The translations under genes and the position numbers were made by a program. From Escherichia phage Snoke, in sequence record MK931441.1: a stretch of DNA of 44,454 nucleotides. One strand, 5' to 3'. Under the pieces are notes generated by a model. The model was given only the letters and a program-made list of their open reading frames with translations. It ran no database searches and was not told where the DNA came from. Below, piece by piece: positions 13-37,573 of this stretch. Every line of letters begins with the position of its first letter. Positions within the stretch are counted from its first letter, which is position 1.

Positions 13-597
13 ATGCGCTCCGATGGTCAGACGCATATGTCAGGGGGTTATATGAAACTTACACTTAAGCAACCATCACCTGAGGTGGTGCAAGCTGCAC
101 ATGAAGAGGCTGTTAGCGCCAACCGTCGCCGTAAACGACCACGCGGCAAACAGAGCCTTTACCAGTCGTCCCGTAATTCCGCGGCATTGTGGAACCCGGA
201 CTATTGCGACGAGTTAATCCGGTTCTTCGACCGCAACTCGTGGGAACTCGTACCTACGTCCAAGGGTGACGAACGCCCGCTGATTCAGGATAAACCCCCG
301 TCACTGGCCCGCTTCGCCTTACACATCGGCGTCACTATCCCTATTATTAAGCTGTGGCTGCGTGAGATTCCGGCTTTCGCAGAAGCCTATGAAACCGCTC
401 AGGCGCTGGAAGAGGCGTATTTCACTGAGACCGGGGCCGCGGGTATCTCCGCTACGTTTGCTGCCGCGAAGTTAGGGTTAAGCAAAGAGAAACCGGTTGA
501 ATCCACCGAAGAGACCGCACCAACTGAGATTGTATTCACGGTAGCAGAGCCGGTAGGTAAAATCGTTACCACGAACATGGGTGAGGTAGAGGAATGA
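13..597 (+). CDS. putative terminase small subunit
   Basis: 194-aa ORF directly upstream of and overlapping (ATGA at 594-597) the large terminase gene; basic patch RRRKRPRGK; assigned by position only; start is 12 nt from window edge. Confidence 0.45.
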   Translation: MRSDGQTHMSGGYMKLTLKQPSPEVVQAAHEEAVSANRRRKRPRGKQSLYQSSRNSAALWNPDYCDELIRFFDRNSWELVPTSKGDERPLIQDKPPSLARFALHIGVTIPIIKLWLREIPAFAEAYETAQALEEAYFTETGAAGISATFAAAKLGLSKEKPVESTEETAPTEIVFTVAEPVGKIVTTNMGEVEE

Positions 598-1844
598 GTA
601 TTCAGCTATCAGCCCCTCAGGCGCTGTTCCTGAACTGCGATAACAAATACAAGGCCTATGTCGGTGGCTTCGGCAGCGGCAAGACGTTTGTCGGCTGCCT
701 CGACCTGCTTACGTTCATGCTTAAGCACCCTGGTACGCGCCTTGGCTACTTCGGACCGACCTACCCAGCTATCCGCGACATCTTCTACCCCACGTTCGAG
801 GAAGCGGCTAACCTCCTTGGCCTCGATGTTCTGGTTAAATCCGGCGACAAAGAGGTCGTCGTTACGCGCGGTAAGACTGTAATTGGTACAGTAATCTGCC
901 GCTCGATGGATAACCCCGGCTCGATAGTCGGCTTCAAAATCGCTGCTGCGGTAGTCGATGAATTAGACGTACTGAGCCGTGAGAAAGCGGAGCTAGCGTG
1001 GAACAAAATCGTGGCCCGTATGCGTCTGGTTATCCCTGGCGTAATTAACCACATCTCCGTCACTACGACGCCGGAGGGGTTCAAGTTCGTCTACGCCAAG
1101 TTCAAAGAGAACCCGACACCTAGCTACTCTATGGTGCAGGCGTCAACTCATGAGAACGCCAGGTTCCTGCCGCCGGATTACATCAGCTCGCTGACCGAGA
1201 CCTACCCGGCGCAGTTGATTAACGCCTACCTTAATGGTGAGTTCGTTAACCTTACTTCTGGCAGTGTCTACTACGCCTACGACCGACGAAAGCACCGCAG
1301 TAAAGAGACAATCAAACCTGGTGACACCCTGTACATCGGGCAGGACTTCAACGTTACGAAAAACGCCAGCGCCGTGTATGTGCAACGCCCTAACGGGTGG
1401 CACGCGGTAGCAGAACTGAAAGGGCTGTTCGACACTCCTGACACCGTGCGCGTTATTACCGAGAAGTGGAAGTCGCAAGGCCACCGCATCGTCGTGTATC
1501 CGGATGCCAGCGGAAAGAACCGCAAGACCAACTCGGCGTCAATCTCTGACATAGCCTTACTCCAGCAGGCCGGGTTCGATGTGCGGGCTAAATCTGCCAA
1601 TCCGCCGGTTAAGGACCGTGTTTTAGCCGTGAATACCGCGCTGGAAAAAGGTAAGCTGTGGGTTAATGACCACTTATGCCCTGAGATAGCGAAGACGCTG
1701 GAGCAGCAGGCATACGACGATAAAGGAGAGCCAGCTAAAGACGGCGTAATCGACCATATGGCGGATGCCCTCGGCTATCCTGTAGTTTACGAGATGCCGG
1801 TGGTTAAACCCGTAATCAACATCCCGGTGACTTTCGCACTTTAA
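594..1844 (+). CDS. terminase large subunit
   Basis: Walker A GGFGSGKT and Walker B-like VVDELD in N-terminal ATPase region; conserved position before portal gene. Confidence 0.85.
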   Translation: MSIQLSAPQALFLNCDNKYKAYVGGFGSGKTFVGCLDLLTFMLKHPGTRLGYFGPTYPAIRDIFYPTFEEAANLLGLDVLVKSGDKEVVVTRGKTVIGTVICRSMDNPGSIVGFKIAAAVVDELDVLSREKAELAWNKIVARMRLVIPGVINHISVTTTPEGFKFVYAKFKENPTPSYSMVQASTHENARFLPPDYISSLTETYPAQLINAYLNGEFVNLTSGSVYYAYDRRKHRSKETIKPGDTLYIGQDFNVTKNASAVYVQRPNGWHAVAELKGLFDTPDTVRVITEKWKSQGHRIVVYPDASGKNRKTNSASISDIALLQQAGFDVRAKSANPPVKDRVLAVNTALEKGKLWVNDHLCPEIAKTLEQQAYDDKGEPAKDGVIDHMADALGYPVVYEMPVVKPVINIPVTFAL

Positions 1845-1856
1845 GAGGATTATTCA

Positions 1857-3338
1857 ATGTTAACTATGAACGGTCAGAATCAGGGTGTTAAGACAAAACA
1901 CCGGGAATGGCTGCATCACTTCGATAAATGGCAGAAGGTACGCCACGCACTGGAAGGCGACCTTATCCGTTACCTGCGTAACGTCGGGAAGAACGAGCCG
2001 GACCCGACCTACGCGGCACAGCGGCAGGAAGAATACGAGAACGGCGCTATCTGCTACAACTTCACTAAACGTACCCTGGCGGGGATGGTCGGCAGTGTCA
2101 TGCGCAAAGACCCTGAGCAGATTATTCCGCCTGAACTGGAGTACCTGCTACGTAATGCCGACGGTTCCGGTGTCGGGCTGTGGCAGCACGCGCAGGACAC
2201 GCTGATGGAAATTGACTCAGTAGGCCGTGGCGGGTTGCTGGTGGACGCGCCGGAGACAGCAGCGGCAACGGCAGCAGAGCAGAACGCAGGATTATTAAAC
2301 CCGGTCATCGCGTTCTACACTGCGGAGAACATCATCAACTGGCGACTGACCCGCATCGGTTCGGTTAACCGTGTGACAATGGTCGTGCTGCGTGAGGTGT
2401 GGGAATACTCAGAACCTGGCGCAGAGTTTGAAACAAAGTTCGGTGAACAATACCGCGTTCTCGATTTGATTGACGGGCGCTACCGCCAGCGCATTTACCG
2501 CTTCGATGCCGAAGGTGGTGCGCAGGATGAAGTAATCGAAATATTCCCGGAACTCGGCGAACAGTTACGCGGTAAAATCCCGTTTACGTTCATTGGGGCA
2601 AGCAACAACGACGCCACTATAGACGATGCGCCTTTGCTGCCGTTGGCTGAACTCAATATCGGGCATTTCCGCAACAGCGCAGACAATGAGGAGTCCAGCT
2701 TCGTTGTAGGCCAGCCCACTCTGTTCATCGCCCCGGGCGGGAATATGAGCATGGAGCAGTGGAAAGAAGCCAACCCACACGGGGTACGCATGGGGTCGCG
2801 TTCAGGCCATAACATCGGTGAGGGCGGCAATGCGTTTCTGGTTCAGGCGGGGGAGAACAACCTCGCCAAGCAGAACATGCTGGATAAAGAGAATCAGGCC
2901 CTCCAGATTGGCGCACAGCTTATTACCCCGACGCAGCAAATCACCGCTGAATCGGCCCGTCTGCAACGTGGCGCTGATACGTCTGTTATGTCGACAATCG
3001 CACGTAACGTAAGCATGGCGTACACCGATGCGTTGCGCTGGGTAGCTGCGATGCTCGGGCTTAGTGACGGTACTGAGATTGAGTTCAAGCTGAATATGGA
3101 GTTCTTCCTGCAACCGATGACCGCTCAGGACCGCGCTCAGTGGATGGCGGACATTAATGCCGGTCTGCTGCCAGCGACCGCATACTACGCCGCGTTGCGT
3201 AAAGCAGGGGTGACTGACTGGACCGACGAGGATATTCAGAACGCTATTGAGGACGCACCTCTGCCGTTAGGTGCTGTTACTCAGGTGGCAGGAGAGATTC
3301 CGCAGTCGGTGCAGCAACAAGATGTCACTCAGCAGTAA
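1857..3338 (+). CDS. portal protein (putative)
   Basis: 493-aa ORF between large terminase and head morphogenesis gene; size and position typical of portal; no motif check possible by eye. Confidence 0.65.
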   Translation: MLTMNGQNQGVKTKHREWLHHFDKWQKVRHALEGDLIRYLRNVGKNEPDPTYAAQRQEEYENGAICYNFTKRTLAGMVGSVMRKDPEQIIPPELEYLLRNADGSGVGLWQHAQDTLMEIDSVGRGGLLVDAPETAAATAAEQNAGLLNPVIAFYTAENIINWRLTRIGSVNRVTMVVLREVWEYSEPGAEFETKFGEQYRVLDLIDGRYRQRIYRFDAEGGAQDEVIEIFPELGEQLRGKIPFTFIGASNNDATIDDAPLLPLAELNIGHFRNSADNEESSFVVGQPTLFIAPGGNMSMEQWKEANPHGVRMGSRSGHNIGEGGNAFLVQAGENNLAKQNMLDKENQALQIGAQLITPTQQITAESARLQRGADTSVMSTIARNVSMAYTDALRWVAAMLGLSDGTEIEFKLNMEFFLQPMTAQDRAQWMADINAGLLPATAYYAALRKAGVTDWTDEDIQNAIEDAPLPLGAVTQVAGEIPQSVQQQDVTQQ

Positions 3339-3348
3339 GTTCACATAT

Positions 3349-3370
3349 AGCCCCGAAAGGGGCTTTCTTA
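3349..3370 (+). terminator. stem-loop / weak intrinsic terminator after portal gene
   Basis: AGCCCC-GAAA-GGGGCT hairpin followed by TTCTTA. Confidence 0.4.
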
Positions 3371-3374
3371 TAGT

Positions 3375-5267
3375 ATGCTATTAACTTTAGCGCCACAGGG
3401 TTTATCTATGAGCTTACTTACATCTCTAATCAGCCACCAGATATGGCTGCAACGCACTGCATCCGGTGAGGTGAAAGACCTCGCGCCGTTCATTAAGGAG
3501 ATGCGGGACGAAATAAAACGGCAGGTGCTGTTATTCGGTGACGACGGGCGGAGCACTGCGCGACTGAATAAACTGTTACTCGACCTTGAAGAAGCGCTAA
3601 CCGGACTTACCGGCGATTGGCAAACAAAGCTGACAGAAGACCTTATGGAACTGGCGGCGTATGAGGCCGAGTGGAATGTAAAGACACTGACCACCAACGT
3701 AGATGCGGAATTTGTTACGCCTACTGCCGAACAGGTGTGGTCCGCTGCCGAGTTTCAACCCTTATCATTAAGCGACAAGCCTGTTGATTTCACTAAGCTG
3801 ATGTCGGGATGGGGTGAAACCGAAGTAGCACGTCTCGTAACCGGCGTTAAGATGGGCTTTGTTCAGGGTAAGACAACACGGCAGATTGTTAAGAATGTTG
3901 TTGGTGCTGGTGGTTTGGCGGACATTTCAGAACGTAACGCGGCTACTGTAATCCGCACCGCGCTGTCTCATGTATCCAACGAGGCCCGTAACGAGACGTA
4001 CCGCCAGAACGACGACATCATCGAGAAGTACGAGTGGGTGTCGACGCTGGACAGCCGTACCAGTACGATTTGTAGGGCCAGAGACGGAATGACGTGGGAA
4101 ATCGGTAAGGGGCCGATGCCCCCGGCCCATCCGAATTGTTTACTTGGGGACACTGTAGTATCTACCGGTAGTCCTGTTTCTAACATTTTTAAACGGGCGT
4201 ACAAAGGCACTGTAGTCTATGTCTCTACAAAGTCCGGTCGCACCTTGTCTATCACCCCAAACCACCAGGTATTGACTACCAGTGGTTGGGTTGCTTCCGG
4301 CCTTCTCAATGTAGGTGACAAGCTCGTGTGCGCTAAGGACTCTACTCTCTCTCTCAAGCATAAGGAACACAACGTTGTAGCCAAGTTCTCCGATTTGTTT
4401 AGTGCGGCTAATGTAGCGGTCAATCCTGCGGCGGTCCGTACAAGCCCAACCTCCACCGAAGACTTCCACGGCGACGGAACCGACGGCGAAGTCGAGATTG
4501 TACTTGTCGACCGCCTTTCCTGGGATAAAGTCAAGTCCGGACTGAATAAGCAAATCATTGACAAGGAACTCCCAGTGACTGCCGGCGTTGATGACTCCCT
4601 CCCTGGCTTTGGCTCTGCGAAGCAGTTCGGCATGGTCGGCCTTTCTCCCTCGGACAGCTTCGTGCGCGGCGGCAGAGAGAGCGAGGCGCTCCTCGGGAGT
4701 AGCTTTAGCCATTCTGATAAACATAGCGTCGCTACCTCCGCGAATGGTAACGCCGTTCTCTCTGAGAACGCGTATGACTGGACTACACGAAACGCCGATA
4801 ATCTTTCCGATTTCAACTGGTCCGATGCCGTTGGCGTAGAGCTTGATGATGTTGTCAATTTGGTCTTTAGTGAAGCTGATTTTTGCGGGCATGTTTATAA
4901 CCTCGAAAATGAACAGAACTGGTATCTTGCGAATGGAATTATAGCACATAACTGTCGCTCAACAACCGCGCCTGTAATCAGTTCGGAGTTCGACTTCCTC
5001 GATAAAGGCGCAAAACGCGCGGCTAAGGGCGCGGACGGCGGTATGCAGGTAAGCGCGGACACCACCTATTACGAGTTCCTGAAACAACAACCGGCATGGT
5101 TTCAGGACCAGGCGCTTGGTTCTGTTCGCGGTAAGATTTTCCGCAACAGCGGTATATCACCAGAGGAGTTTCGCGTAATATCTGTAGATGGTTTCGGGAA
5201 TCCGCTCACGCTTAAGCAGATGGCGGAACTCGATAAACGTGTTGCTGATTATCTGAAAGGGGATTAA
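3375..5267 (+). CDS. head morphogenesis protein precursor (Mu F / SPP1 gp7-like) containing an intein
   Basis: Extein carries the minor-head-protein signature DSRTSTICRARDG...PPAHPN-C-R; 630-aa precursor = about 358-aa extein plus 272-aa intein. Confidence 0.8.
   Translation: MLLTLAPQGLSMSLLTSLISHQIWLQRTASGEVKDLAPFIKEMRDEIKRQVLLFGDDGRSTARLNKLLLDLEEALTGLTGDWQTKLTEDLMELAAYEAEWNVKTLTTNVDAEFVTPTAEQVWSAAEFQPLSLSDKPVDFTKLMSGWGETEVARLVTGVKMGFVQGKTTRQIVKNVVGAGGLADISERNAATVIRTALSHVSNEARNETYRQNDDIIEKYEWVSTLDSRTSTICRARDGMTWEIGKGPMPPAHPNCLLGDTVVSTGSPVSNIFKRAYKGTVVYVSTKSGRTLSITPNHQVLTTSGWVASGLLNVGDKLVCAKDSTLSLKHKEHNVVAKFSDLFSAANVAVNPAAVRTSPTSTEDFHGDGTDGEVEIVLVDRLSWDKVKSGLNKQIIDKELPVTAGVDDSLPGFGSAKQFGMVGLSPSDSFVRGGRESEALLGSSFSHSDKHSVATSANGNAVLSENAYDWTTRNADNLSDFNWSDAVGVELDDVVNLVFSEADFCGHVYNLENEQNWYLANGIIAHNCRSTTAPVISSEFDFLDKGAKRAAKGADGGMQVSADTTYYEFLKQQPAWFQDQALGSVRGKIFRNSGISPEEFRVISVDGFGNPLTLKQMAELDKRVADYLKGD
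4137..4952 (+). mobile_element. intein (Hint domain), 272 aa
   Basis: Begins Cys1 CLLGDTVV (block A), SITPNHQVLT (block B, TxxH), ends VYNLENEQNWYLANGIIAHN (blocks F/G, terminal HN) followed by Cys+1 at 4953; splits conserved extein motif HPN|CR. Confidence 0.8.
4140..4892 (-). CDS. HTH + Vsr/DUF559-like PD-(D/E)XK endonuclease, candidate homing endonuclease encoded antisense to the intein
   Basis: Minus-strand ORF coextensive with the intein; ATG at 4892 preceded by GAGG with 8-nt spacer; N-terminal HTH (ISFTKDQIDNIIKLYANGIGPVEIGKIIGVSCSPVIRVLRENG) and nuclease signature SHWEFLVNDLL...YNLDFAVGSVAVEVFGGGW...RRRIDRYISRTKQIGELGYNVVF; ORF track gives upstream ATG at 4949 without SD. Confidence 0.6.
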   Translation of the reverse strand: MPAKISFTKDQIDNIIKLYANGIGPVEIGKIIGVSCSPVIRVLRENGVTIRGGSDAMFIRMAKATPEERLALSAAAHEAVRGRKADHAELLRRAKAREGVINAGSHWEFLVNDLLIQSGLDFIPGKAVDKYNLDFAVGSVAVEVFGGGWACTDRRRIDRYISRTKQIGELGYNVVFLMLERESRVLSAHELVTYIEKAGSNPTTGSQYLVVWGDRQGATGLCRDIDYSAFVRPFKNVRNRTTGRYYSVPK

Positions 5268-5728
5268 TGATGGGCTTTTTTAAAGTAACTGATGTGCCGT
5301 CGCGTCGCGTAGTCCAGTACGCCCGTGTATCCGGTTCTGGTGAGAACGTGGTGTCTATTGGGGACGAAAGTGTACTAGGTACACCGGTAGACGAGATGCC
5401 GTATGCGGACAAGACCGGTATCGCACTCTCTGCTGCTGGTATGCTTTATGAGATTCCGTATCGGGCAGATGCTGGTGATGTGTATTTCTCTGTGCAACCG
5501 AAAGACACCGAGCTGGTCGACGGTAGCGCCACCATCACCGTCGAAGTTAAGGCGGGTAAAGCGCCGTATGTACTGACCTGGTACAAAGACGGGAAGGAAG
5601 TGGTGAACGTCCCGGAAGAGGCTCTGTCTCTGACTGTTAATGCGGCTGGTGAATACTTCGTTAAAGTTACTGATGCCGATGGTGCGGAGGCCGTAAGCAA
5701 AGCGGCGAAGGTCTCTAAACCAGGATGA
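5267..5728 (+). CDS. Ig-like domain protein (virion-associated, function unknown)
   Basis: C-terminal beta-rich repeat with YVLTWYKDGKEV motif typical of bacterial Ig-like domains; start overlaps stop of morphogenesis gene. Confidence 0.5.
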   Translation: MMGFFKVTDVPSRRVVQYARVSGSGENVVSIGDESVLGTPVDEMPYADKTGIALSAAGMLYEIPYRADAGDVYFSVQPKDTELVDGSATITVEVKAGKAPYVLTWYKDGKEVVNVPEEALSLTVNAAGEYFVKVTDADGAEAVSKAAKVSKPG

Positions 5729-5730: not shown

Positions 5731-5760
5731 AAAGGCCCCATAATGGGGCCTTAGTTTTAT
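5731..5760. terminator. bidirectional intrinsic terminator
   Basis: AGGCCCCA-TAA-TGGGGCCT hairpin flanked by A-run upstream and T-run downstream, between convergent genes. Confidence 0.7.
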
Positions 5761-6278
5761 TTAAATCGCGCGGGCATTAACACCATAAAGGCCGTGTTTG
5801 AAAATTGTATTTTGCATCCTCTGGTTTGGTCCTGGAAATCGAAACGAGCAATTTCATTTTTGTATGCCTTAGAAATCTTGTACGCGTCTGCCAAATAGCG
5901 CAGAGTGAACCCTATACTACCGACAACACCCGGTGTGATGTGCGCCACGCGTCTCCAGTCAGGAAAGTTTCCTTCTACAACATCTACCGGAAGTGTACAT
6001 ATAAGCGCACGATTATCGTCATAGAAAGATACACTGCCGTTGTCGTGGTCTACCTCTGCGTAGTTAAATTTAGAAGGCTCTCTCCCTTTAATGTCGACGA
6101 GAACCCCTTTCTCAACGTTCGTCTTCACATTGTCGCAGAACAATCTATGACCGTCCGTAGACACTATCAATCCTTCAGGGTCTATGTAAAAAGCGTTCAA
6201 ATAGTAGCGAACATCATTTTTAGCCCTGCATATTTTCGCCCCTACATACGCAGGGAAAGTAATTACTGTAGTAACCAT
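5757..6278 (-). CDS. truncated DnaN-like protein (beta sliding clamp homolog, domain II plus partial domain III)
   Basis: 173 aa; DVRYYLNAF...STDGHRLFC, EGNFPDWRRV, IGFTLRYLADA and C-terminal FMVLMPARFK match, in order and spacing, E. coli DnaN motifs DVRYYLNG...ATDGHRLAVC, DGRFPDYRRV, IGFNVSYVLDVLNA and YVVMPMRL; strong SD AGGAGG 6 nt before ATG. Confidence 0.6.
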   Translation of the reverse strand: MVTTVITFPAYVGAKICRAKNDVRYYLNAFYIDPEGLIVSTDGHRLFCDNVKTNVEKGVLVDIKGREPSKFNYAEVDHDNGSVSFYDDNRALICTLPVDVVEGNFPDWRRVAHITPGVVGSIGFTLRYLADAYKISKAYKNEIARFDFQDQTRGCKIQFSNTAFMVLMPARFK

Positions 6279-6305
6279 TTTATGCCTCCTGTTTAAGTTA
6301 ACTGA

Positions 6306-6334
6306 ATAGTACCCTATTATATTGGTGCGCGCAA
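6306..6334 (-). promoter_or_regulatory. sigma70-type promoter (class II: TTGCGC-17-TACTAT) for DnaN-like gene
   Basis: Minus-strand TTGCGC, 17-bp spacer gcaccaatataataggg, TACTAT; spacer conserved with promoters at 15400, 37978, 38911. Confidence 0.55.
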
Positions 6335-6400
6335 ACTATTTGTTTACGTATTCCAGATATTCCACTCAATTGTAAACGTTGGAATAAACTATTCGAATAG

Positions 6401-6429
6401 TTGACTTTTCACTGAAAATATGCTAAGCT
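6401..6429 (+). promoter_or_regulatory. sigma70-type extended -10 promoter (class III: TTGACT-17-TGnTAAGCT), copy A
   Basis: TTGACT, 17-bp spacer ending TGC, TAAGCT; promoter plus about 45 nt of downstream leader nearly identical to 37681-37757. Confidence 0.55.
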
Positions 6430-6609
6430 CCACCTGAGCTTGTGAAGTATGAACAAGCGACCGCGGCGCGGGCAGGTAACGGAGCTGGACGTAAGTCCTG
6501 AGTGTAGTTACGCTGACGCGTTCGGAAGGGCCATACTCTATTGCTTGTGCAAAAAGTAACTGGTTTACTGAGATTACGCCGTTTCTATGTTTAAATGATA
6601 AGGACTAGC

Positions 6610-6637
6610 GCCCCGCTTTAAGGCGGGGCTTTACTTA
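6610..6637 (+). terminator. hairpin plus T-tract (attenuator/terminator-like) just upstream of spanin genes
   Basis: GCCCCGC-TTTAAG-GCGGGGC followed by TTTACTTA. Confidence 0.4.
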
Positions 6638-6653
6638 TCGAGAAAGGGGAAAC

Positions 6654-7046
6654 ATGAATCTTAAAGCAACTGTCGTAGCCAGAGCATGTTTCGTCGTCCT
6701 AGCCCTAGCCTACGCACACGGCATCTATCAATACCGCAGCGGCTGGGGTGAAGGCCGTGCTAATCTCGTTTCGCAGCAACAGCAGAAAGCACAGGCTGAG
6801 CTGACGAAGAAAACACAACGGCAGCAGCAGGATGAATCAAAGGCCGCCGCCGCTGACAACGAAGGCAAGACGAAATCAGAGGTGCTTACCCGTGAAGTCG
6901 TTAAGTACATTAAAACGCCTGGCCGCAGCGTGTGCACTTTCGACGATGCTCGCGTCCTGCTCAAGTCCCACGCCGTTGCCAACGCCAATTCCATCCCCGG
7001 ATACGACGATGATGCAGCCGCCGTGCAAACTGGCACCGCCAAGTAG
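6654..7046 (+). CDS. Rz-like i-spanin (putative)
   Basis: N-terminal transmembrane segment (VVARACFVVLALAYAHGIY), Q/K/E-rich helical region, C-terminal Cys; overlapped in +1 frame by lipoprotein ORF. Confidence 0.5.
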   Translation: MNLKATVVARACFVVLALAYAHGIYQYRSGWGEGRANLVSQQQQKAQAELTKKTQRQQQDESKAAAADNEGKTKSEVLTREVVKYIKTPGRSVCTFDDARVLLKSHAVANANSIPGYDDDAAAVQTGTAK

Positions 7047-7155
7047 CGACGCTGACGAGGATTTAGCTATCGACGTTCAGAACGCCGAATGTGTACGGCA
7101 ACTGAGACTGAAAGTGTTCATGTTGCAGGATTACGTGAGGAATATTCTGGAATAG
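6832..7155 (+). CDS. Rz1-like o-spanin lipoprotein (putative; start uncertain)
   Basis: +1 frame overlapping C-terminal part of Rz-like ORF; lipobox LASC after hydrophobic stretch LAAACALSTM; proline-rich mature part with Cys. Confidence 0.5.
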   Translation: MNQRPPPLTTKARRNQRCLPVKSLSTLKRLAAACALSTMLASCSSPTPLPTPIPSPDTTMMQPPCKLAPPSSDADEDLAIDVQNAECVRQLRLKVFMLQDYVRNILE

Positions 7156-7237
7156 TTGCCTTGTATGTTGGAATAATTTATTCTTGACATGTAAATCCGG
7201 GAGGCCCGGATTCCAACGTCCAGGGGACATACTGACT

Positions 7238-7939
7238 ATGAATCGTTTTTTACACTATCCGTTCCAGGAAGAAGCTGGGGCAGAAGATAAATCCGGCGGT
7301 GGCGACGCTCCAAAAATGTTCACCGCTGAAGAAGTTCAGGCGATGATTGAGAAAGAAGTTGCCGGACTTAAGGCCAATCAGGAAGCATTGCTGGCGGAGA
7401 AGAAAGAAGCCGCCCGTAAAGCAAAAGAGGCCGAAGAGGAACGTCAGCGCGCGCACCAGGAGGCGCTAAAAGCCGCCGGTAAGATGGACGAGTTCGAAAA
7501 GACGATTCGTAGCCAGTATGACCCGGTGTTAGCCGAGAAAGATGGTCGCATCACCAAAATGGCTGAGCGCATCCTCGGCAGCGAACGTAAAGCGGTGTTA
7601 GGCTCTTTCGCAGGTGATTTCATCACACCGGAAGCAGTAGACATTCTTGCTCCGTTCGTTAAGACTGAGTTTGAAGGCGATGACGTGGTTACTAAGTTTG
7701 TTGGTGCAGACGGCAACGTAATCACAACTGACCCGGAACAGTTCCGCAAATACCTGCGTGAACACAAAGCGTTTTCGCATTTGATTAAAGCAAATGCAGC
7801 TTCCGGCGGCGGGGCTTCCGGCGGCAAAGGCGGCGGGGCCGCACCAGCGTTTAAAGACATGAACGAAGCGGAGCGTTTAGCTCTGTACAAATCGAACCCT
7901 GCCGAATTTGAACGGCAACTTAAAGCCCTGAGGAAATAA
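7238..7939 (+). CDS. scaffolding protein (putative)
   Basis: Charged, helix-prone, A/E/K-rich protein immediately upstream of major capsid gene; start taken at first ATG (ORF track extends to 7184). Confidence 0.5.
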   Translation: MNRFLHYPFQEEAGAEDKSGGGDAPKMFTAEEVQAMIEKEVAGLKANQEALLAEKKEAARKAKEAEEERQRAHQEALKAAGKMDEFEKTIRSQYDPVLAEKDGRITKMAERILGSERKAVLGSFAGDFITPEAVDILAPFVKTEFEGDDVVTKFVGADGNVITTDPEQFRKYLREHKAFSHLIKANAASGGGASGGKGGGAAPAFKDMNEAERLALYKSNPAEFERQLKALRK

Positions 7940-7941
7940 TA

Positions 7942-8991
7942 ATGGCAATTACCACTATCGGCGATATCGTAACTGGCAACGTACCCGTCCTTCTGTCCTA
8001 TATGACTGAGGACCCGGTAGAGAAAACTGCGTTCTTCCAGTCCGGCATCCTGGCCCCGACCCCGTACGCTGCTGAGATTGCTCGCGGTCCGTCCAACGTC
8101 GCTAATATTCCTTTCTGGAAAGCGATTGATACCTCTATCGAGCCGAACTACTCGAACGATGTATATCAGGACATCGCCACTCCACGCAACGTACAAACCG
8201 GTGAGATGATGGCACGCGTCGCTTATCTGAACGAAGGCTTCGGACAGGCAGACCTGACTGTTGAACTGACCAGCCAGAACCCGCTGCAATCTGTTGCCGC
8301 TCGTCTGGATAACTTCTGGCAGCGTCAGGCACAGCGCCGTCTGATTGCTACCGCTCTCGGCCTGTATAACGACAACGTAACGGCAACCGATGCTTACCAC
8401 GAGCAGAACGACATGGTTATCGACGTGTCTGCGACTCTGGGCTTCGATTCTGGCGCGTTCATTGACGCTACCCAAACCATGGGTGACGCGCTGATGGGTA
8501 ATGGTGGTGAAGTGCTGGGGGCAATCGCGATGCATAGCTTCGTGTATGCGCAGGCGCGTAAGCAACAGCTTATCGACTTCATCCGCGATGCCGACAACAA
8601 CACCATGTTCGCCACCTACCAGGGCTACCGCGTGATTGTTGACGACAGCATGACCGTAGTTGGTACTGACTCTAGCCGTAAGTTCATCTCCATCATCTTC
8701 GGCAACGGTGCTATCGGTTATGGTGAAGGCAACCCGTCCAACCCGCTGGAATATGAACGCGAAGCGTCTCGCGGTAACGGTGGTGGCGTAGAAACCCTGT
8801 GGACTCGTAAGACCTGGCTGCTGCACCCACTGGGCTACAGCTTCACCAGCGCGGTAATCACCGGCAACGGCACCGAGACTACCCCACGCTCCGCTTCCTG
8901 GCAGGACCTGGCAAACGCCTCCAACTGGAACCGTGTTGTTGACCGCAAGCATGTACCGATTGCCTTCCTGGTAACTGGTGTCGGGGCTTAA
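7942..8991 (+). CDS. major capsid protein
   Basis: 349-aa ORF after scaffold, good SD GAGGA, followed by strong hairpin; position and size typical of major capsid protein. Confidence 0.7.
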   Translation: MAITTIGDIVTGNVPVLLSYMTEDPVEKTAFFQSGILAPTPYAAEIARGPSNVANIPFWKAIDTSIEPNYSNDVYQDIATPRNVQTGEMMARVAYLNEGFGQADLTVELTSQNPLQSVAARLDNFWQRQAQRRLIATALGLYNDNVTATDAYHEQNDMVIDVSATLGFDSGAFIDATQTMGDALMGNGGEVLGAIAMHSFVYAQARKQQLIDFIRDADNNTMFATYQGYRVIVDDSMTVVGTDSSRKFISIIFGNGAIGYGEGNPSNPLEYEREASRGNGGGVETLWTRKTWLLHPLGYSFTSAVITGNGTETTPRSASWQDLANASNWNRVVDRKHVPIAFLVTGVGA

Positions 8992-9006
8992 GGTTAAGAT
9001 ATAATC

Positions 9007-9033
9007 GAGAGGGACTTCGGTCCCTCTTTTCAT
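9007..9033 (+). terminator. intrinsic terminator/attenuator after capsid gene
   Basis: GAGGGAC-TTCG-GTCCCTC hairpin followed by TTTTCAT. Confidence 0.6.
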
Positions 9034-9050
9034 TTACTAAGAGGTGATTT

Positions 9051-9359
9051 ATGGCTAAGACCGGAAAAGGCTTGCCGCGCAGCCTTCAGAATGTCGACTT
9101 CGGCGACTTTGATATCCCCGTCACGCCCGCCACTACCAGCGTAGTTGGTGGCGTTAAAAAGTCAGCCACTGTAGCTGCACCCGCGGTCATTACCGCTGCC
9201 GCCGGGGCGCAGTCCGCTGCGGATCCGACTAAAGCCGAGTTCGATGCTCTTGTAGCGGAGTACAACAAACTTCGAACCGATGTTACCGCGCTGCGCACTA
9301 CCGTAGCAAATCTGTTGACTGCGCTTAAAAACGCAGGAACCGTAAGTAAAGGAGCTTAA
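9051..9359 (+). CDS. hypothetical virion protein
   Basis: ORF in head gene cluster, A/T/V-rich; no recognisable motif. Confidence 0.35.
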   Translation: MAKTGKGLPRSLQNVDFGDFDIPVTPATTSVVGGVKKSATVAAPAVITAAAGAQSAADPTKAEFDALVAEYNKLRTDVTALRTTVANLLTALKNAGTVSKGA

Positions 9360-9361
9360 AA

Positions 9362-9703
9362 ATGGTTGATGTAATTAAACGTCGTATTACTGGTGTGTCC
9401 GCCGATACCGTGGGTGCTAAAATCGATATGGCAAATATCTCGCCAGCGTCTTTCTCTTCCGCGCTGGCGGCTACTACCTCCGTTACCGCAGGTGAAACCA
9501 TGACACTGACCGTAACCGTAACGGGCGGTCTGGAGCCGTATTCCTACCAGTGGTACAAGAACAACAACGCTATCCCCGGCGCTAACGCTGCCACCTACGA
9601 GAAAACTTCGCTCGCTACTACCGATTCGGGTACGTATAAAGTGGTTGTTCACGATGTGTATGGTAATATTATCTCCAGCAGCACTGTAGCAACTGTGTCT
9701 TAA
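9362..9703 (+). CDS. Ig-like domain protein (possible capsid decoration)
   Basis: YSYQWYKNNNAIPGANAATYEKTSLATTDSGTYKVVVHDVYGN resembles Ig-like I-set domain. Confidence 0.5.
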   Translation: MVDVIKRRITGVSADTVGAKIDMANISPASFSSALAATTSVTAGETMTLTVTVTGGLEPYSYQWYKNNNAIPGANAATYEKTSLATTDSGTYKVVVHDVYGNIISSSTVATVS

Positions 9704-9739
9704 TACGACGGCCCTTCGGGGCCGTAATAAGGAAAGGTC

Positions 9740-9919
9740 ATGGCAGATAATTATGTAATCCGCGAAAAGTACACCCACGTTGATGTTGTTGACGGTCAGG
9801 TAATGCCAGTTCGCGGTGCTGTAGAGGCGGATGAACTGGTTGCAACCCAACCGGACAACGAAGAAGCGCGCAACAACGGCGGTGGTACTAAGCGTCGTCG
9901 CCGTAAGTCGGAGGAATAA
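9740..9919 (+). CDS. small basic protein (hypothetical)
   Basis: 59-aa ORF not in track (below 60 aa), SD AGGAAAGG upstream, C-terminal KRRRRK. Confidence 0.3.
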   Translation: MADNYVIREKYTHVDVVDGQVMPVRGAVEADELVATQPDNEEARNNGGGTKRRRRKSEE

Positions 9920-9922
9920 TTC

Positions 9923-10435
9923 ATGCCGCTAATCGTGGAGACAGGGGCAATCGTCCCGAATGCCGACAGTTACATTAGTCTGGCTGACGCCCGCGCGTTA
10001 GCGGCTAATTATGGCCTTGAGCTACCAGAAGACGATACCGCAGCAGAGGTGGCCTTACGCAACGGTGCTACTTATGTAGGGCTTGCAGAACCGCAGATGT
10101 GCGGTCGTCGAGTATCCGCCGAACAGTCTCTTGCATACCCCCGCACCGGCGTTACGTTAAACGGGTTCCCGGTGGTCAACAACGCCATTCCGAAACAGGT
10201 GATTCTTGCGCAGGTAATCGCTGCCGCTACATATGGCGCTGGTACTGAGGTGCGTGCTAACTCAGACGGGCGTTCAGTACAGACCGAACGCGTAGAGGGC
10301 GCGGTAACCGTCACCTACTTCAATAACGGCAGCTCTGGCGCTACTACATCAATCACCGCAGCCGATGACGCCTTACGTCCGTTACTGTGCGGTGGTCTTA
10401 ACAATGGTTTCTCGTTTAACGTGTACCGGGGTTAA
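9923..10435 (+). CDS. virion structural protein (possible head-tail adaptor)
   Basis: Position between capsid and tail genes; assigned by synteny only. Confidence 0.35.
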   Translation: MPLIVETGAIVPNADSYISLADARALAANYGLELPEDDTAAEVALRNGATYVGLAEPQMCGRRVSAEQSLAYPRTGVTLNGFPVVNNAIPKQVILAQVIAAATYGAGTEVRANSDGRSVQTERVEGAVTVTYFNNGSSGATTSITAADDALRPLLCGGLNNGFSFNVYRG

Positions 10436-10437
10436 AA

Positions 10438-11052
10438 ATGGCGAAGACTAAATCAGAGATATTCACGCTAATCGGTTCCGAGCTACCGGACAACACGACC
10501 GGACTTATTACGCCTGCGAAGTTGCGCGGGGTATTAACCCAGATGGCTGACTCACCTATTTACGCCACTCCGGGTGTTAAAGAGGTTGAAGTTCTCCGCG
10601 CTGCGTTGACAGTAGCGCAAGCGCCTACCGCAGTAGATACGGCGTTGCAGTTAACTTTCGGCTCTGCCCAGGGTAGTGCATCTGACCCGGTAATGATTAA
10701 TGCTGCGGGTCTTGTTACGTTCAACACCGCGGGTAACTACGCTGTTCGCATCAAGTTACAGGCCGGTCGTACAGGGGCCAGCGGTACATCTATCCTGTTA
10801 TCGCGCATTCTTCTGAACGGTGCTCAGTACGGCTCTCCAGCTGCCACGAAACTGGTAAGCGCGGACACCACAATCCCGATTGAATCCCGCGTCGTTATTA
10901 ACGCAACAGCAGGCCAGACGTTTGTCGTTCAGATTATGCGGGATAGCGCCGGGAGTAACTTCGGTGGCGTATACCCTCAAGCGGCTACCGTAACCGCATG
11001 GGGTGCAGCCCCCTCAGCGCTACTGGTTATTTCGAGACTGGAGGCCGCCTGA
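10438..11052 (+). CDS. virion structural protein (hypothetical)
   Basis: Synteny in neck region. Confidence 0.35.
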   Translation: MAKTKSEIFTLIGSELPDNTTGLITPAKLRGVLTQMADSPIYATPGVKEVEVLRAALTVAQAPTAVDTALQLTFGSAQGSASDPVMINAAGLVTFNTAGNYAVRIKLQAGRTGASGTSILLSRILLNGAQYGSPAATKLVSADTTIPIESRVVINATAGQTFVVQIMRDSAGSNFGGVYPQAATVTAWGAAPSALLVISRLEAA

Positions 11053-11411
11053 TGAGCACCGCTTTCAGTAAACGTATGCAAGGCGTTGGCACGCGCCTGC
11101 TAACCAAATTCGGTAGCACGGTATCTCTGGTTCGCGCTGGCTCGAAAGTGTGGGATGAGGTTCTCGGAGAGTACATCTGGTCTGCGGATGAAGTGCTGCC
11201 GCTGAAAGCCGTACCTGTTCCGGTTAACGCGGGCTTGGTTAACGGCACAACCATTCAGGCGGGAGACATGATTGTTAAAGCCGATTACAGCGTCGTCCCG
11301 AAGATGGAAGACAAGGTGCAATTCGGCGGTGAGCAGTGGTCGGTAGTAGCCATCGAGAAGAAGATGGTTAACGATGACGTTGTGGTATATTTTATTCAGG
11401 TGAGAAAATGA
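11052..11411 (+). CDS. virion structural protein (hypothetical)
   Basis: ATGA-coupled to upstream gene; ORF track start at 10998 overlaps upstream gene, internal ATG at 11052 preferred. Confidence 0.35.
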   Translation: MSTAFSKRMQGVGTRLLTKFGSTVSLVRAGSKVWDEVLGEYIWSADEVLPLKAVPVPVNAGLVNGTTIQAGDMIVKADYSVVPKMEDKVQFGGEQWSVVAIEKKMVNDDVVVYFIQVRK

Positions 11412-11803
11412 GTTTCGCGCTTGATGTCTCTAAGTTCGTTGAGAAGGCGAAGAAGAACCCTGAAACGGTTATGCGTCAGGTGTCTATCAAGCTGTTTTCC
11501 GCTATTATAAAGGCGAGTCCGGTAGACAAAGGGCGTTTTCGTATGAACTGGATGGCGTCGGGAGGAACCCCCGCTTCCGGAACTACAGACGCTACCGACA
11601 AGTCTGGTAACATCGCAATAGGAAACGCCACTAGTTTTGTGCTGAAAGCCGCAGACTGGCACGAGTTCACGCTGACTAATAACCTGCCGTACGCCCAACC
11701 TCTTGAGTACGGTTGGTCGCAACAGGCCCCGCAAGGCATGGTCAGGACTAATGTGTCACGCTTCCAGCAACTAATTAATGAAGAAGCCAATAAGGTAAAA
11801 TGA
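11408..11803 (+). CDS. tail completion protein (HK97 gp10-like, putative)
   Basis: Motif PVDKGRFRMNW resembles gp10-family signature; position before major tail gene. Confidence 0.5.
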   Translation: MSFALDVSKFVEKAKKNPETVMRQVSIKLFSAIIKASPVDKGRFRMNWMASGGTPASGTTDATDKSGNIAIGNATSFVLKAADWHEFTLTNNLPYAQPLEYGWSQQAPQGMVRTNVSRFQQLINEEANKVK

Positions 11804-12216
11804 TGGGCTACTTTGAAGACTTAACCAAAGCGTTCGACGTGCCGCTGGTAGCCTTCGGGGCCACCAACGGCATCAGGGTAGCGCTTGAGAACATCGACGC
11901 TCCGACGTCAACCGATACGCCATACCTTGCGAGTTACATGCTACTGGCGGATACCGAGCAGGCCGACTTATTTTTCACAGAGCAACGCGCCGGTGTTTAT
12001 CAGGTGGACATTAACTACGCATCGGTGAAAGGTAGCGCGCCAATCAATAAAATGGCAGACTTACTTAACACGGCGTTTAAAGCAGGTAAGTCTTTTTCAC
12101 GTAACGACATCTGCGCCGAAGTGCAATCGGTTAGCCTGGGGCCGCTGATTGTAGAAAATGGATGGGCTAAAAGACCATTGTCGATTAACTTTATTGCATT
12201 CACCAAGAGGCTGTGA
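11800..12216 (+). CDS. tail terminator-like protein (putative)
   Basis: Synteny immediately upstream of major tail protein. Confidence 0.35.
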   Translation: MMGYFEDLTKAFDVPLVAFGATNGIRVALENIDAPTSTDTPYLASYMLLADTEQADLFFTEQRAGVYQVDINYASVKGSAPINKMADLLNTAFKAGKSFSRNDICAEVQSVSLGPLIVENGWAKRPLSINFIAFTKRL

Positions 12217-13385
12217 ATATGGCTACAACTCCTTTTAAGGGCGCGAATACCGCGCAATTCTATGTGGCGGAAACTACCCCGGGCGTGACACCGACTTCCC
12301 CGGTATGGTCGCCGTTGCGTAATACTGGCGGCGTTCCCGCGATTACCCGCGACACTTTGACCTCCAACGAACTGGACGGCAGCCGCGAAACTACGTCAAT
12401 TCGCACTGGTAACAAACAGGTTAGCGGTGAATACGCCATCGAGCTTAGCTCTAAAAGTCAGGATGACTGGCTGGCAGGTGCTTTAGGCTCTACGTGGCAA
12501 TCAGGTGTATCCTTAACTGACCTGTCAATTACCGTCGCACCGGCAGGCAAGACGTTCACCCGTGCTGATGGTAGCTTTATTACCGACGGCGTTGAAGTAG
12601 GCGACCTGATTGCGTTTACCGACTTAACGGGAGATAACGCAAAACCGTTCATCGTCACTGCGGTAGAGGCACTGGTAGTGACCGGTGCGGGCATCCAGCA
12701 CACTCTCACCACAGAGACCGCTACTACTGCTGCTAAGACAGGCGACAAACTGGAAACCGGTAGCCAGTGTAAGACGTTCTCTATTCTCACATGGTACAAA
12801 GGCCAGTGCGGCGGGACTGACGCGTACACGCTTACCAAAGGTGTAGAAGTTTCTGGTTTCACTGTTGAGCAGGCCGTTAACGCGATGGTAACGGGCAGCT
12901 TCCCGTTCATCGGGCGCAGCCAGGAGATTCTCACCGAGCCGCCGTCTGGTTCTGATTTCTCCTCTGTTACGTTTGGTGATGAGCCGTTCTCCTCAGTTGA
13001 CGTTTCTGTGTTCGATGGCTCTACGCCGTTGCGTTGTGATAGCCTTACCATCACCAACGACAACAGCGCGTCCGCGCAGTTCGAACTCGGCAACACTAAC
13101 GTTGCGTTTGTGGAACGTAGCCGCGCGGCCAACACCTTCTCCATCTCCGGTAAGCTGTACGACATGGCGATGATTCAGAAGTTTATCAACGAACAGCAGG
13201 TAGAGATTAACTCTATTCTGGCGGGGGTAAACGGGGCTATGTCTTTCAGTCTGAAACGTGCAGAACTCACGGCGGTTACGCCAGAGATTGGTGGTCCTGA
13301 GTCAATCACTCAGAGCATAGAAGGACAGTCCACAGGCAATCAATATCAATCTTCTATTGTAATACAGCGCATTAGCTACGCGTAA
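12213..13385 (+). CDS. major tail protein (putative)
   Basis: 390-aa ORF upstream of chaperone/tape-measure genes, followed by strong terminator. Confidence 0.55.
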   Translation: MNMATTPFKGANTAQFYVAETTPGVTPTSPVWSPLRNTGGVPAITRDTLTSNELDGSRETTSIRTGNKQVSGEYAIELSSKSQDDWLAGALGSTWQSGVSLTDLSITVAPAGKTFTRADGSFITDGVEVGDLIAFTDLTGDNAKPFIVTAVEALVVTGAGIQHTLTTETATTAAKTGDKLETGSQCKTFSILTWYKGQCGGTDAYTLTKGVEVSGFTVEQAVNAMVTGSFPFIGRSQEILTEPPSGSDFSSVTFGDEPFSSVDVSVFDGSTPLRCDSLTITNDNSASAQFELGNTNVAFVERSRAANTFSISGKLYDMAMIQKFINEQQVEINSILAGVNGAMSFSLKRAELTAVTPEIGGPESITQSIEGQSTGNQYQSSIVIQRISYA

Positions 13386-13387
13386 GG

Positions 13388-13413
13388 AAAAGGCCCCTTT
13401 CGGGGCCTTTTCC
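13388..13413. terminator. bidirectional intrinsic terminator
   Basis: AAAA-AGGCCCC-TTTC-GGGGCCT-TTTT between convergent genes. Confidence 0.7.
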
Positions 13414-13587
13414 TTATTCCTTCAATTGCATTGGGTAGAAGTTAACGAGTTCTCCTTTATCCCGAAGCCGTGAATATTCATCTAACGCATCTTCCCGGCT
13501 ACTTACAGCATAGATATCATTCCACTCGTCCCATTCTTTGTCGTATACGCGGATTATGTATATTGTTTTCATTACATTCTTACTCAT
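13414..13587 (-). CDS. hypothetical protein (accessory island)
   Basis: Minus-strand ORF; internal ATG at 13587 has SD AGGAG 8 nt upstream; AT-rich. Confidence 0.35.
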   Translation of the reverse strand: MSKNVMKTIYIIRVYDKEWDEWNDIYAVSSREDALDEYSRLRDKGELVNFYPMQLKE

Positions 13588-13810
13588 CAATATTACTCCT
13601 GTACTCTCGTAACTTCTCCAGACTTTCAATTGCTTCCGCTAAGTCGGTTCCGGTGTCTTTGTGCCCGCGAAGGCCCATACACAATAGCTTCTTCAATGCG
13701 TGCTGTAGCGCCGGGTCGCGAATGTCGAAGGCACGCAGCACATCATAAACGTCTACTGTCATAGTGCTGCCGTGAGTGTTTGTCATTGTGCGGTTGTATT
13801 TATTTGTCAC
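13580..13810 (-). CDS. hypothetical protein (accessory island)
   Basis: Minus-strand ORF from track (GTG start); no motif recognised. Confidence 0.3.
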   Translation of the reverse strand: MTNKYNRTMTNTHGSTMTVDVYDVLRAFDIRDPALQHALKKLLCMGLRGHKDTGTDLAEAIESLEKLREYRSNIDE

Positions 13811-14000
13811 TGTTAACTCTCTTAAATCTGGCTATGCCTGACTCGTTAATGTTGCCTATTTCAAAGAAGCTGCGATATTTAGGCGAATACATTCTTACAT
13901 CGCCATTCTCTAGGGTGACCCCTTCATATACAGCACCTACTTCGAATCCATTTTTCTCCGCGTACGGACTCACATCGGTGCATTCATACATGTCTTTCAT
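13800..14000 (-). CDS. hypothetical protein (accessory island)
   Basis: Minus-strand ORF, coupled to upstream phosphoesterase gene. Confidence 0.3.
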   Translation of the reverse strand: MKDMYECTDVSPYAEKNGFEVGAVYEGVTLENGDVRMYSPKYRSFFEIGNINESGIARFKRVNSDK

Positions 14001-15127: not shown

Positions 15128-15166
15128 GCTTTACTTCCTCGTGTTTAGGATTTGTCCTATACTAGC

Positions 15167-15358: not shown

Positions 15359-15399
15359 GGTGTAGCTCCTGTTCGAGTTAACATTGTTGGTGTAAGTGA

Positions 15400-18647: not shown

Positions 18648-18650
18648 CCA

Positions 18651-20051: not shown

Positions 20052-20054
20052 TTT

Positions 20055-31586: not shown

Positions 31587-31590
31587 CACT

Positions 31591-37181: not shown

Positions 37182-37394
37182 TTATTTATCGCCTGCAAAC
37201 CACGCGTGCGCAGAATCATAGAAACGACATTTACTTAATACCTCGATTGGCATCTTAATAATGCGCGTCGGTTCCGACAAATGATTAGGCTTACATATTT
37301 CTGCATAGAATCCGCTGTCAGTAATTTCTGACGCAAACTTAAACCAGTATTTAACTTTACCGTCTTCAAAGTAACAACCCATACGCCCAATCAT
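37182..37394 (-). CDS. hypothetical protein
   Basis: ORF from track. Confidence 0.3.
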   Translation of the reverse strand: MIGRMGCYFEDGKVKYWFKFASEITDSGFYAEICKPNHLSEPTRIIKMPIEVLSKCRFYDSAHAWFAGDK

Positions 37395-37573
37395 TTCACG
37401 TTCTCCTTAATCCATGCTTCAACTTTATTACGGTCAAATGTACCCGGTAAACGGCGGCCCATTACTTTAATACAGCAGTCAGGGAATTTACCACTGCGCA
37501 GCCAGTTATTAATTGTCTGACGTGTCACACCGATACGTTCTGCTACTTCATTCTGGGTCATGTAATGTTGCAT
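37391..37573 (-). CDS. HTH DNA-binding protein (AlpA/excisionase-like fold, putative regulator)
   Basis: MTQNEVAERIGVTRQTINNWLRSGKFP helix-turn-helix; internal ATG with SD AGGAG 8 nt upstream. Confidence 0.55.
   Translation of the reverse strand: MQHYMTQNEVAERIGVTRQTINNWLRSGKFPDCCIKVMGRRLPGTFDRNKVEAWIKENVK

Follow-up and report, generated by a model that had tools for sequence, protein, structure and literature searches.

A promoter-linked leader RNA, duplicated in Escherichia phage Snoke and conserved in Guernseyvirinae siphophages, as a candidate regulator acting in cis

Introduction

Why would a virulent phage place nearly the same promoter, followed by nearly the same untranslated sequence, in front of two unrelated sets of genes? 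The question is raised by Escherichia phage Snoke (MK931441.1), a virulent siphovirus whose complete Kagunavirus genome (Guernseyvirinae), 44,454 nucleotides long, is the whole stretch of DNA analysed here and is referred to below as the window. Over the regions compared, Snoke is nearly identical to the E. coli siphophages Shashou and Schulenburg. Few therapeutic phages of E. coli and Salmonella are isolated as frequently as Kagunaviruses and Jerseyviruses, and the element that we describe is the most conserved non-coding sequence heading their late operon. We found neither a published description of this leader RNA nor a published map of start sites or 3' ends for these two groups of viruses; a Kagunavirus transcriptome paper reports gene-level data only (PMC12645636).

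The rightward genes of Snoke fall into three blocks, namely terminase, portal and head morphogenesis (13-5728), spanins, scaffold, capsid, tail and tailspike (6654-25863), and small early genes, holin/endolysin and further small genes (38041-44389). The leftward genes, including those for replication, lie mostly at 25894-37573.

A duplicated promoter and leader

The longest direct repeat in the window (repeat search, family D2) joins 6401-6470 (copy A) and 37681-37750 (copy B) with 87% ungapped identity, close to the figure of about 90% given in a preliminary description of this DNA. Past 6470 there is a 1-nt indel, followed by blocks that MAFFT aligns for about 70 nt more, up to about 6570 and 37855, in agreement with the earlier remark that the sequence 3' of the repeat is diverged and still alignable. 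The conserved element itself had been delimited as 6401-6476; it is present there, but these limits are too narrow, given that the structured core reaches approximately 6571 (covariance-model matches 6433-6571 and 37713-37854). The core of the leader RNA occupies 6436-6571 in copy A and 37716-37854 in copy B, both on the plus strand, and the matches of the covariance model described below (R1) score 169 bits in copy A and 86 bits (E 3e-20) in copy B.

What has been duplicated is a portable module in which a structured non-coding leader RNA of about 135 nt is fused to a strong extended -10 promoter of the sigma70 type. The suggestion that one such module is common to two transcription units holds as well: it heads both rightward units. 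The joint duplication of promoter and RNA ahead of genes that are unrelated argues for a role that is exerted in cis, independently of the gene that follows, at the level of transcription or of the mRNA.

Distribution of the leader among related phages

Relatives were collected by an exact-word scan of IMG/VR, from loci anchored on the capsid and helicase genes and from GenBank phages, and these sources yielded five versions of the element. K-A is the copy that precedes the spanin gene in Kagunaviruses and some Salmonella phages; B and B2 are two forms of the second copy; J comes from SETP3/Ent2-like Jerseyviruses; and T3 is found in Cornellvirus FSL SP-031, phiEap-2, 'pink', Hafnia phage TS33 and Pantoea phage AH01. 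The copy that heads the spanin/structural operon is present in every sampled relative of K or J type (180 and 268 GenBank records, respectively). Two copies are present in 42 of the 180 K-type records, and all 268 J-type records are single-copy. A gapped pattern scan of IMG/VR, followed by the model, revealed no members outside Guernseyvirinae, the extra matches being chance ones inside genes, and no homologue was matched in 5,426 complete genomes of E. coli. The leader is a previously uncatalogued RNA family, confined among the collections searched to Guernseyvirinae siphophages, and it is of a known general kind, the cis-regulatory 5' leader.

Where copy B is missing, its place is taken by another promoter and by an unrelated leader that is rich in hairpins. 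At the copy-B position of phage Bas74 (L234:500-800), for example, there is a promoter TTGACACATGTTTGTATAATG, found also in Pantoea phage AH01, and a leader that contains a long, nearly perfect hairpin, GUUGACGAA(C/U)CCCUC/GAGGGAUUCGUCAAC. Alternative leaders of this type may be functional analogues of copy B.

Fold and covariation

Is the conserved entity an RNA? Model R1 was built from 21 K-A and B2 sequences with a hand-derived structure, and it matches every K, B, B2 and J copy (35-172 bits) and, weakly, that of phiEap-2 (23 bits, E 0.001). The layout consists of a 5' hairpin, P1, a gap of 2 nt, a long irregular stem with a conserved internal loop, P2, an invariant YGGRAGG tract and a short stem, P3. 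In copy A, P1 (GCUUGU 6438-6443 paired with ACAAGC 6453-6458) begins about 2 nt after the predicted start site. P2 spans 6461-6525 and comprises modelled outer pairs (6465-6470/6517-6522), the helices CAG/CUG (6473-6475/6513-6515) and GUAAC/GUUAC (6476-6480/6507-6511), an internal loop made of GGAG (6481-6484) and AGUGUA (6501-6506), and an apical hairpin (6485-6500) with a GUAA loop. YGGRAGG lies at 6523-6529, and P3 joins UAUU (6539-6542) to AGUA (6555-6558). The minimum free energy (MFE) fold of copy A is that of the model and accounts for 45% of the ensemble; a CCG(C)/CGG extension of P2 in this copy, which comes from the MFE fold only and shows no covariation, is possible. In copy B, P1 and the ACCGCGG tract are identical to those of copy A, the interior of P2 is diverged yet paired, the tract after P2 reads UGGGAGG (37804-37810), and P3 is kept.

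The covariance analysis across related phages, which had been proposed as a check in the preliminary description, gave a clear answer. Standard pairs make up 96.3% of the cells in the covariance-model alignment, which has 47 distinct rows, and compensatory changes on both sides are seen in 18 of the 30 pairs (119 cells). The covariation score is 0.303 compared to a mean of 0.114 for column shuffles, none of which reaches this value (0 of 500), and it falls to 0.018-0.050 when the partners are slid by 1-3 columns. The apical hairpin occurs as CGGGAC/GUCCUG, CGGUGC/GCACUG and CGGGGC/GCCCUG, the helix beneath the internal loop as GUAAC/GUUAC, GGAAC/GUUCC and GAAAC/GUUUC, and one outer pair of P2 as C-G, U-A and A-U. 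P1 takes a different form in each type, GCUUGU-N9-ACAAGC in K, ACGCU-UUC-AGCGU in J and UUCGU-UCU-ACGAA in T3, always at the predicted 5' end. The strong covariation shows that the leader is a functional RNA. RNAalifold retrieved the fold only in part when given raw MAFFT alignments, the reason being that the B and J types are misaligned in them.

Several unpaired segments are invariant or nearly so: ACCGCG before P2, the loop strands GAGC and GAGUGUA (UAGCGUAA in J), and YGGRAGG after P2. In a set of 36 distinct K-A loci, no local segment varies less than the leader, which has a diversity of 0.01-0.06 per site versus 0.05-0.21 in the spanin gene and 0.2-0.65 upstream. The earlier proposition that conservation is at the nucleotide level is correct and extends to the level of structure, the short open reading frame that raised the issue being absent from the J and Cornellvirus-type versions. 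Two other pairings were considered and abandoned. That of GCGGCG with CGCCGU, taken from an MFE fold, is rejected because a change of G7 to U in three loci (L017, L021 and L064) is uncompensated; a hairpin AGUAAC/GUUACU (6555-6569) is disfavoured, given that B types with AAUAUC break it and P3 stays paired (U.G to U-A).

The leaders of four distant relatives, Cornellvirus, phiEap-2, TS33 and AH01 (L090:281-372, L231, L232 and L233), depart from this arrangement in that the motif GACCGCG^CGGAAGGG is contiguous and the loop strands UAGCGAG and AACGAGC come in swapped 5'/3' order. Judging from the sequences, it is as if P2 had been permuted in these leaders with respect to the K and J types; the leader of phiEap-2 retains the GUAAC/GUUAC helix.

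Promoters and the surrounding DNA

Both copies carry the extended -10 promoter TTGACT-17-TGnTAAGCT that had been recognised at the outset. On the plus strand, promoter A (6401-6429) combines a -35 element TTGACT (6401-6406), a 17-nt spacer and an extended -10 element TGcTAAGCT (6421-6429), and promoter B (37681-37709) combines TTGACT (37681-37686), a 17-nt spacer and TGgTAAGCT (37701-37709). The start sites are predicted at about 6436 and 37716, that of promoter A being placed by spacing only. An independent annotation of an equivalent promoter and of a leader-end terminator is contained in the GenBank record of phage fBC-Eco01. What did not survive is the first hairpin of the preliminary description, AAGCTC-N4-GAGCTT: its spacer is 5 nt, it is not kept in the J type, and it cannot fold in a transcript that begins at about 6436, because its left arm is the -10 hexamer (6425-6430).

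The complementarity between the -10 hexamer and a strand of P1 (6425-6441 and 37705-37721) is there in the DNA, as AAGCTC/GAGCTT in copy A and as AAGCTCAG-C-CTGAGCTT, with 8-bp arms, in copy B. The J type has a -10 element, TACGCT, that recurs as the 5' strand of P1. A corresponding alternative hairpin could form only in transcripts that enter from upstream.

Directly 5' of promoter A, on the plus strand, lies a set of repeats (6350-6400) that consists of ATTCCA at 6350-6355 and 6359-6364, TGGAAT at 6380-6385 and the palindrome CTATTCGAATAG at 6389-6400. A layout ATTCCA-N3-ATTCC...GGAAT also precedes the J-type (Jerseyvirus) and T3-type (Cornellvirus) promoters, and the ATTCCA/TGGAAT repeats are absent 5' of promoter B; possibly, these repeats are binding sites for a regulator that is specific to the structural operon.

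Located 3' of leader B is a second promoter (TTGCAC-17-TACTAT, 37978-38006) that includes an AATAG-N4-CTATT palindrome (37994-38007; family D4). The leftward genes are served by a promoter family distinct from that of promoters A and B and marked by this palindrome (family D1), and the promoter 3' of leader B is one of this kind. The palindrome promoters of the minus strand (27855-27898, 31557-31600 and 34094-34137) read TTGACA..AATAGnnnnCTATTATAGT and those of the plus strand (37977-38024 and 38910-38957) read TTGCAC-17-TACTAT, with the palindrome between the -35 and -10 elements; at promoter A, its inverted form, CTATTCGAATAG, adjoins the -35 element. The palindrome promoters are probably operator-controlled early or middle promoters, the regulator being perhaps the Cro-like protein encoded at 34188-34403.

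Operon layout and the 3' parts of the leaders

Unit 1 runs from promoter B across the end of the window to a terminator at 5732-5752 and comprises early genes, then lysis genes, then terminase and portal. Unit 2, the spanin/structural operon, runs from promoter A to a terminator at 25868. Together, the two leader-headed units span the rightward lysis, packaging and structural genes, and strong internal intrinsic terminators are found in both (9007-9028, 13388-13412, 38796-38817 and 3349-3364). Across the 19-kb structural operon, nothing else that resembles promoter A in its near-consensus -35 and extended -10 elements was evident, a promoter scan having returned only chance-level matches (9-10 of 12 positions). 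Leftward genes flank both copies, a clamp-like gene (6278..5757) next to copy A and a helix-turn-helix gene (37573..37391) next to copy B; Shashou has kept copy A without an adjacent leftward gene.

The 3' part of leader A (6572-6653, plus strand) includes a conserved GCCGU (6578-6582), a long hairpin (6597-6639) and a Shine-Dalgarno sequence AAAGGGG (6643-6649) ahead of the i-spanin ATG at 6654. The hairpin has an outer stem GAUAAG/CUUAUC, a core GCCCCGC/GCGGGGC (6610-6629) and the tail UUUACUUAU; the terminator scan confirms the GC hairpin and T-tract that had been noted at 6610-6637 before the start of an Rz-like gene, the T-rich tail ending 16-17 nt upstream of this ATG. The rest of leader B (37855-38040, plus strand) contains GCCGU (37859-37863), a (CTCA)3 repeat (37879-37893), a GC hairpin GGUGCC-UUCG-GCACC (37895-37911) with a weak U-rich tail, and the second promoter, and is followed by the first gene (ATG 38041). 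The hairpin of the B2 version is different again. The copy number of the CTCA repeat varies from 3 to 6 across related phages, and the tract could be a Rho-loading site since it is C-rich, G-poor and unstructured.

Is the end hairpin an attenuator, as had been supposed? This reading is supported only in part. Within K, the core of the hairpin occurs as GCCCCGC, GCCCAGC and GCCCUGC, each with a matching partner; in J it is GCCCGGC or GCCCGAC flanked by UAUACG/CGUAUA; and T3 has a different long stem, such that a hairpin is kept by compensatory changes in all types. The U-tract is moderate in K (UUUACUUAU), weak in J and absent in T3 (Cornellvirus-like), and inspection of the A, B, B2, J and T3 leaders revealed neither a conserved pairing nor a mutually exclusive fold that links the core with the end hairpin. 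The downstream hairpins, which lie 60-75 nt from the core, are unlike in sequence among the leaders. A stable hairpin is thus maintained about 200 nt from the start, whereas canonical termination at that point is not conserved.

Coding capacity and known RNA families

Could the leader encode a peptide? A short reading frame that begins MNKRPRR is indeed present in both copies, with its frame shifted by a 1-nt indel, as had been pointed out. We reject it as a leader peptide, given that the frame differs between A and B and that the ATG is absent in J, in T3 and in the L064/L010 variants. A mini-ORF would start at UUG 6541, 11 nt after YGGRAGG, and this UUG is kept in K, J, B and B2; the mini-ORF is an unlikely coding sequence, being located inside P3 at a long spacing, ranging from 1 to 19 codons and missing in T3. 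These comparisons support a non-coding element.

Nor does the leader fall into a catalogued family. Rfam 15 produced no match across the whole window at gathering thresholds and, with E up to 10, only chance-level matches (at most 15 bits) and no riboswitch in the two leaders. Model R1 found no match at E up to 0.1 in an 8-kb region of phage HK022 that contains putL, and a match to put noticed by eye, GAGCGCGGCGGG..CAGG..AACGG, was discarded as not significant, the Smith-Waterman score of 18 for the best local alignment being reached by 193 of 1000 dinucleotide shuffles. No boxA was matched in either leader with up to 3 mismatches, and no ops/JUMPstart sequence (GGCGGTAGnnTG) on the plus strand of 6436-6653 or 37716-38040 with up to 2 mismatches. 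The Cornellvirus-type leaders do hold CGTAGCGAG, which agrees with ops in 9 of 12 positions, but this lies within an internal loop of the RNA. A sigma-dependent pause element was dismissed as well: TGAGCT at the start site lacks the key A, and the UAU in the loop of P1 is not kept in J. In a Pfam search of 20 small or regulatory proteins, there was no antiterminator of the N, Q or any other family.

The only strongly basic reading frame is 40626-40964 (112 aa, 25 R+K versus 9 D+E, TTG start, no Pfam match). Between the homologous flanking genes of Shashou no counterpart is annotated, and Shashou has both copies of the leader; this frame is not linked to the leader.

Comparison with known leader RNAs

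The closest parallel is phage HK022, in which the put RNAs (putL and putR) are RNA-only processive antiterminators that are blocked by rpoC mutations in the zinc-binding domain of the beta' subunit of RNA polymerase. The putL RNA is located at the very 5' end of its transcript, where a long irregular stem comes almost immediately after a short one (PMC9378689). The Snoke leader, too, is 5'-terminal and has a short stem followed by a long irregular one, so that two adjacent stem-loops come directly after a sigma70 promoter, as in put; this is a resemblance of layout only. The likeness extends to the presence of two related copies per genome, each after a sigma70 promoter that heads a long operon with terminators, and to the lack of a recognisable dedicated antiterminator protein. 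The differences are substantial: the Snoke leader is about 135 nt long compared to about 72 nt for put, has YGGRAGG and P3 in addition, shows no sequence similarity, and belongs to a virulent siphovirus, whereas HK022 is lambdoid.

In phage lambda, late transcription is controlled by the succession of PR', the 194-nt 6S RNA and tR', together with Q. Snoke shares with this arrangement a constitutive-looking promoter, an untranslated leader of about 200 nt, a hairpin or terminator at its end and a very long late operon, a layout that by analogy would suit a read-through switch. Unlike lambda, with its Q and N/nut systems, Snoke has no Q- or N-like protein and no boxA; no conserved -10-like pause element was seen in the initially transcribed region across the leader types; and the conserved element is an RNA fold in Snoke but a DNA site for Q binding in lambda.

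Structured 5' leader RNAs on long operons are also known from Gram-positive bacteria. EAR RNA is a structured 5' leader for processive antitermination of Bacillus eps operons, and the conAn leader RNA has this function in long conjugation operons (PMC8191782). These RNAs come from other phyla and are unrelated in sequence and structure, with the model comparison consisting of the negative Rfam scans alone, and conAn2 requires the ConAn1 protein. A likeness of another kind exists to the ompA 5' stem-loop and to the RNase III leader hairpins of T7 and lambda, with P1 at the extreme 5' end and a long interrupted stem before the ribosome-binding site; those hairpins, however, are simple and devoid of extensive single-stranded motifs, so P2, YGGRAGG and P3 are left unexplained. 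The leader is not a member of put, nut, ops or any Rfam family, and it may still work like put.

Elongation control and the alternatives

What, then, could such an RNA be doing? The reading that we favour, with a probability of roughly 0.4, is that the leader serves in cis for elongation control or processive antitermination, in a manner analogous to put or nut without belonging to either family. The leader RNA would influence, in cis, the same RNA polymerase molecule from which it has just emerged, either alone, as HK022 put does, or with a host or phage factor, as in the case of nut sites. A polymerase that departs from promoter A or B would then pass the leader-end hairpin or terminator (6610-6637; 37895-37911) and those within the operons of 12-20 kb (9007-9028, 13388-13412, 38796-38817 and 3349-3364), and P1 would probably also shield the 5' end of the mRNA. 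This proposal is consistent with the covariation-backed fold, in which P1 is swapped for an unrelated hairpin in J and T3; with the strong selection that makes the leader the least variable local segment; with intrinsic terminators inside both leader-headed units; with the different promoter and hairpin-rich leader found where copy B is missing; and with a putL-like layout in a phage that has no recognisable protein antiterminator among the 20 proteins scanned. Against it, start sites, 3' ends and read-through alike are predictions; the leader has no similarity to put, no boxA and no ops; internal terminators that are partly read through are common in late operons of phages that have no antiterminator; and the conserved single-stranded tracts would fit any specific interaction of RNA with protein or RNA equally well. 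Furthermore, a terminator that must be overcome at the leader's 3' end is not universal, because the U-tracts are weak or absent in the J and T3 relatives. A stronger version of the proposal, arrived at by analogy with put, is that this leader constitutes a second family of RNA-only processive antiterminators, independent of put in its evolution, and that its P1-P2-YGGRAGG fold binds RNA polymerase without any protein; we consider this rather doubtful.

The same features can be put to other uses. A module for mRNA stability or processing, in which P1 blocks the 5'-end-dependent action of RNase E, in the manner of the ompA 5' stem-loop, and the other folds set RNase III or RNase E sites and stable ends, would produce long-lived late mRNAs and leave elongation unaffected. 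The location of P1 at most about 2 nt from the 5' end predicted for K, J and T3 is what one would expect of such a module, as is its placement before unrelated genes, and the end hairpin, an interrupted stem of about 17 bp, resembles an RNase III substrate in which covariation keeps the stem and not the U-tract. A simple protective hairpin, however, needs neither some 100 nt of near-invariant sequence nor an internal loop nor YGGRAGG, and a further promoter intervenes between copy B and the first gene, so that the 5' protection of the mRNA of this gene does not depend on copy B; on balance, we regard the stability module as somewhat unlikely. It is unlikely to a greater degree that the main product is an abundant discrete RNA of about 200 nt, ending at 6637 and at about 37925, that acts in trans as a regulator, sponge or decoy, with read-through being secondary. 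Strong promoters of constitutive type, a stable fold, 3' hairpins at about 200 and 210 nt and two gene copies that would raise the dose all speak for such an RNA; yet the tails of the 3' hairpins make poor terminators in copy B, J and T3, the universal copy is the one before the late operon, which fits a role in cis, and read-through appears to be required for the 19-kb structural operon because no comparable other promoter is evident.

Two further possibilities carry little weight in our view. An aptamer that, like a riboswitch, senses a ligand or factor and times late expression through termination at the end of the leader would account for a size of about 100 nt, for the concentration of conserved nucleotides in junctions and internal loops, which is typical of aptamers, and for the hairpin that follows in every type. 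It is improbable considering that inspection disclosed no conserved, mutually exclusive pairing between core and hairpin, that the platforms 60-75 nt downstream of the core are unrelated between copies A and B, and that no Rfam riboswitch was matched with E up to 10. Very improbable is conservation at the level of DNA, with the element serving the divergent genes as an operator or as part of an overlapping minus-strand promoter that reads leftward (TTCACA-18-CATATT). A promoter-like match on the minus strand (9 of 12 positions) inside both copies, the AAGCTC/GAGCTT inverted repeat across the start site, with its 8-bp arms in copy B, and the leftward genes that flank both copies in the window are compatible with this idea; recognition of DNA by a protein, however, leaves the pairing-preserving compensatory changes unexplained, Shashou carries copy A without a neighbouring leftward gene, and neither the palindrome nor the minus-strand match is kept in J.

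Should elongation control be the correct reading, the leader would be the second natural example, after put, of a nascent RNA that reprograms E. coli RNA polymerase, and a compact part for synthetic operons. If, in addition, the RNA acts alone, the late programme of Guernseyvirinae would run on a self-contained promoter-plus-RNA cassette that renders the polymerase of E. coli or Salmonella resistant to pauses and terminators. Even as a leader for stability or protein binding, the element would be a key regulatory node for the engineering of these phages.

Neighbouring genes

Two of the genes near copy A differ between Snoke and Shashou. The head-morphogenesis gene (Mu F-like, 3375-5267) contains an intein (Pfam Intein_splicing, residues 263-526), the product being 630 aa long in Snoke compared to about 347 aa in Shashou; in Shashou the intein is instead in the helicase, and the helicase of Snoke (26210-27634) is intein-free. 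The sliding-clamp-like gene (5757-6278, minus strand, 173 aa), which lies directly 5' of promoter A, has a weak match to Pfam DNA_pol3_beta_2, and its homologue in Shashou is annotated as a clamp and placed after the portal gene. This gene is mobile, and the region 6040-6340 is highly variable among relatives.
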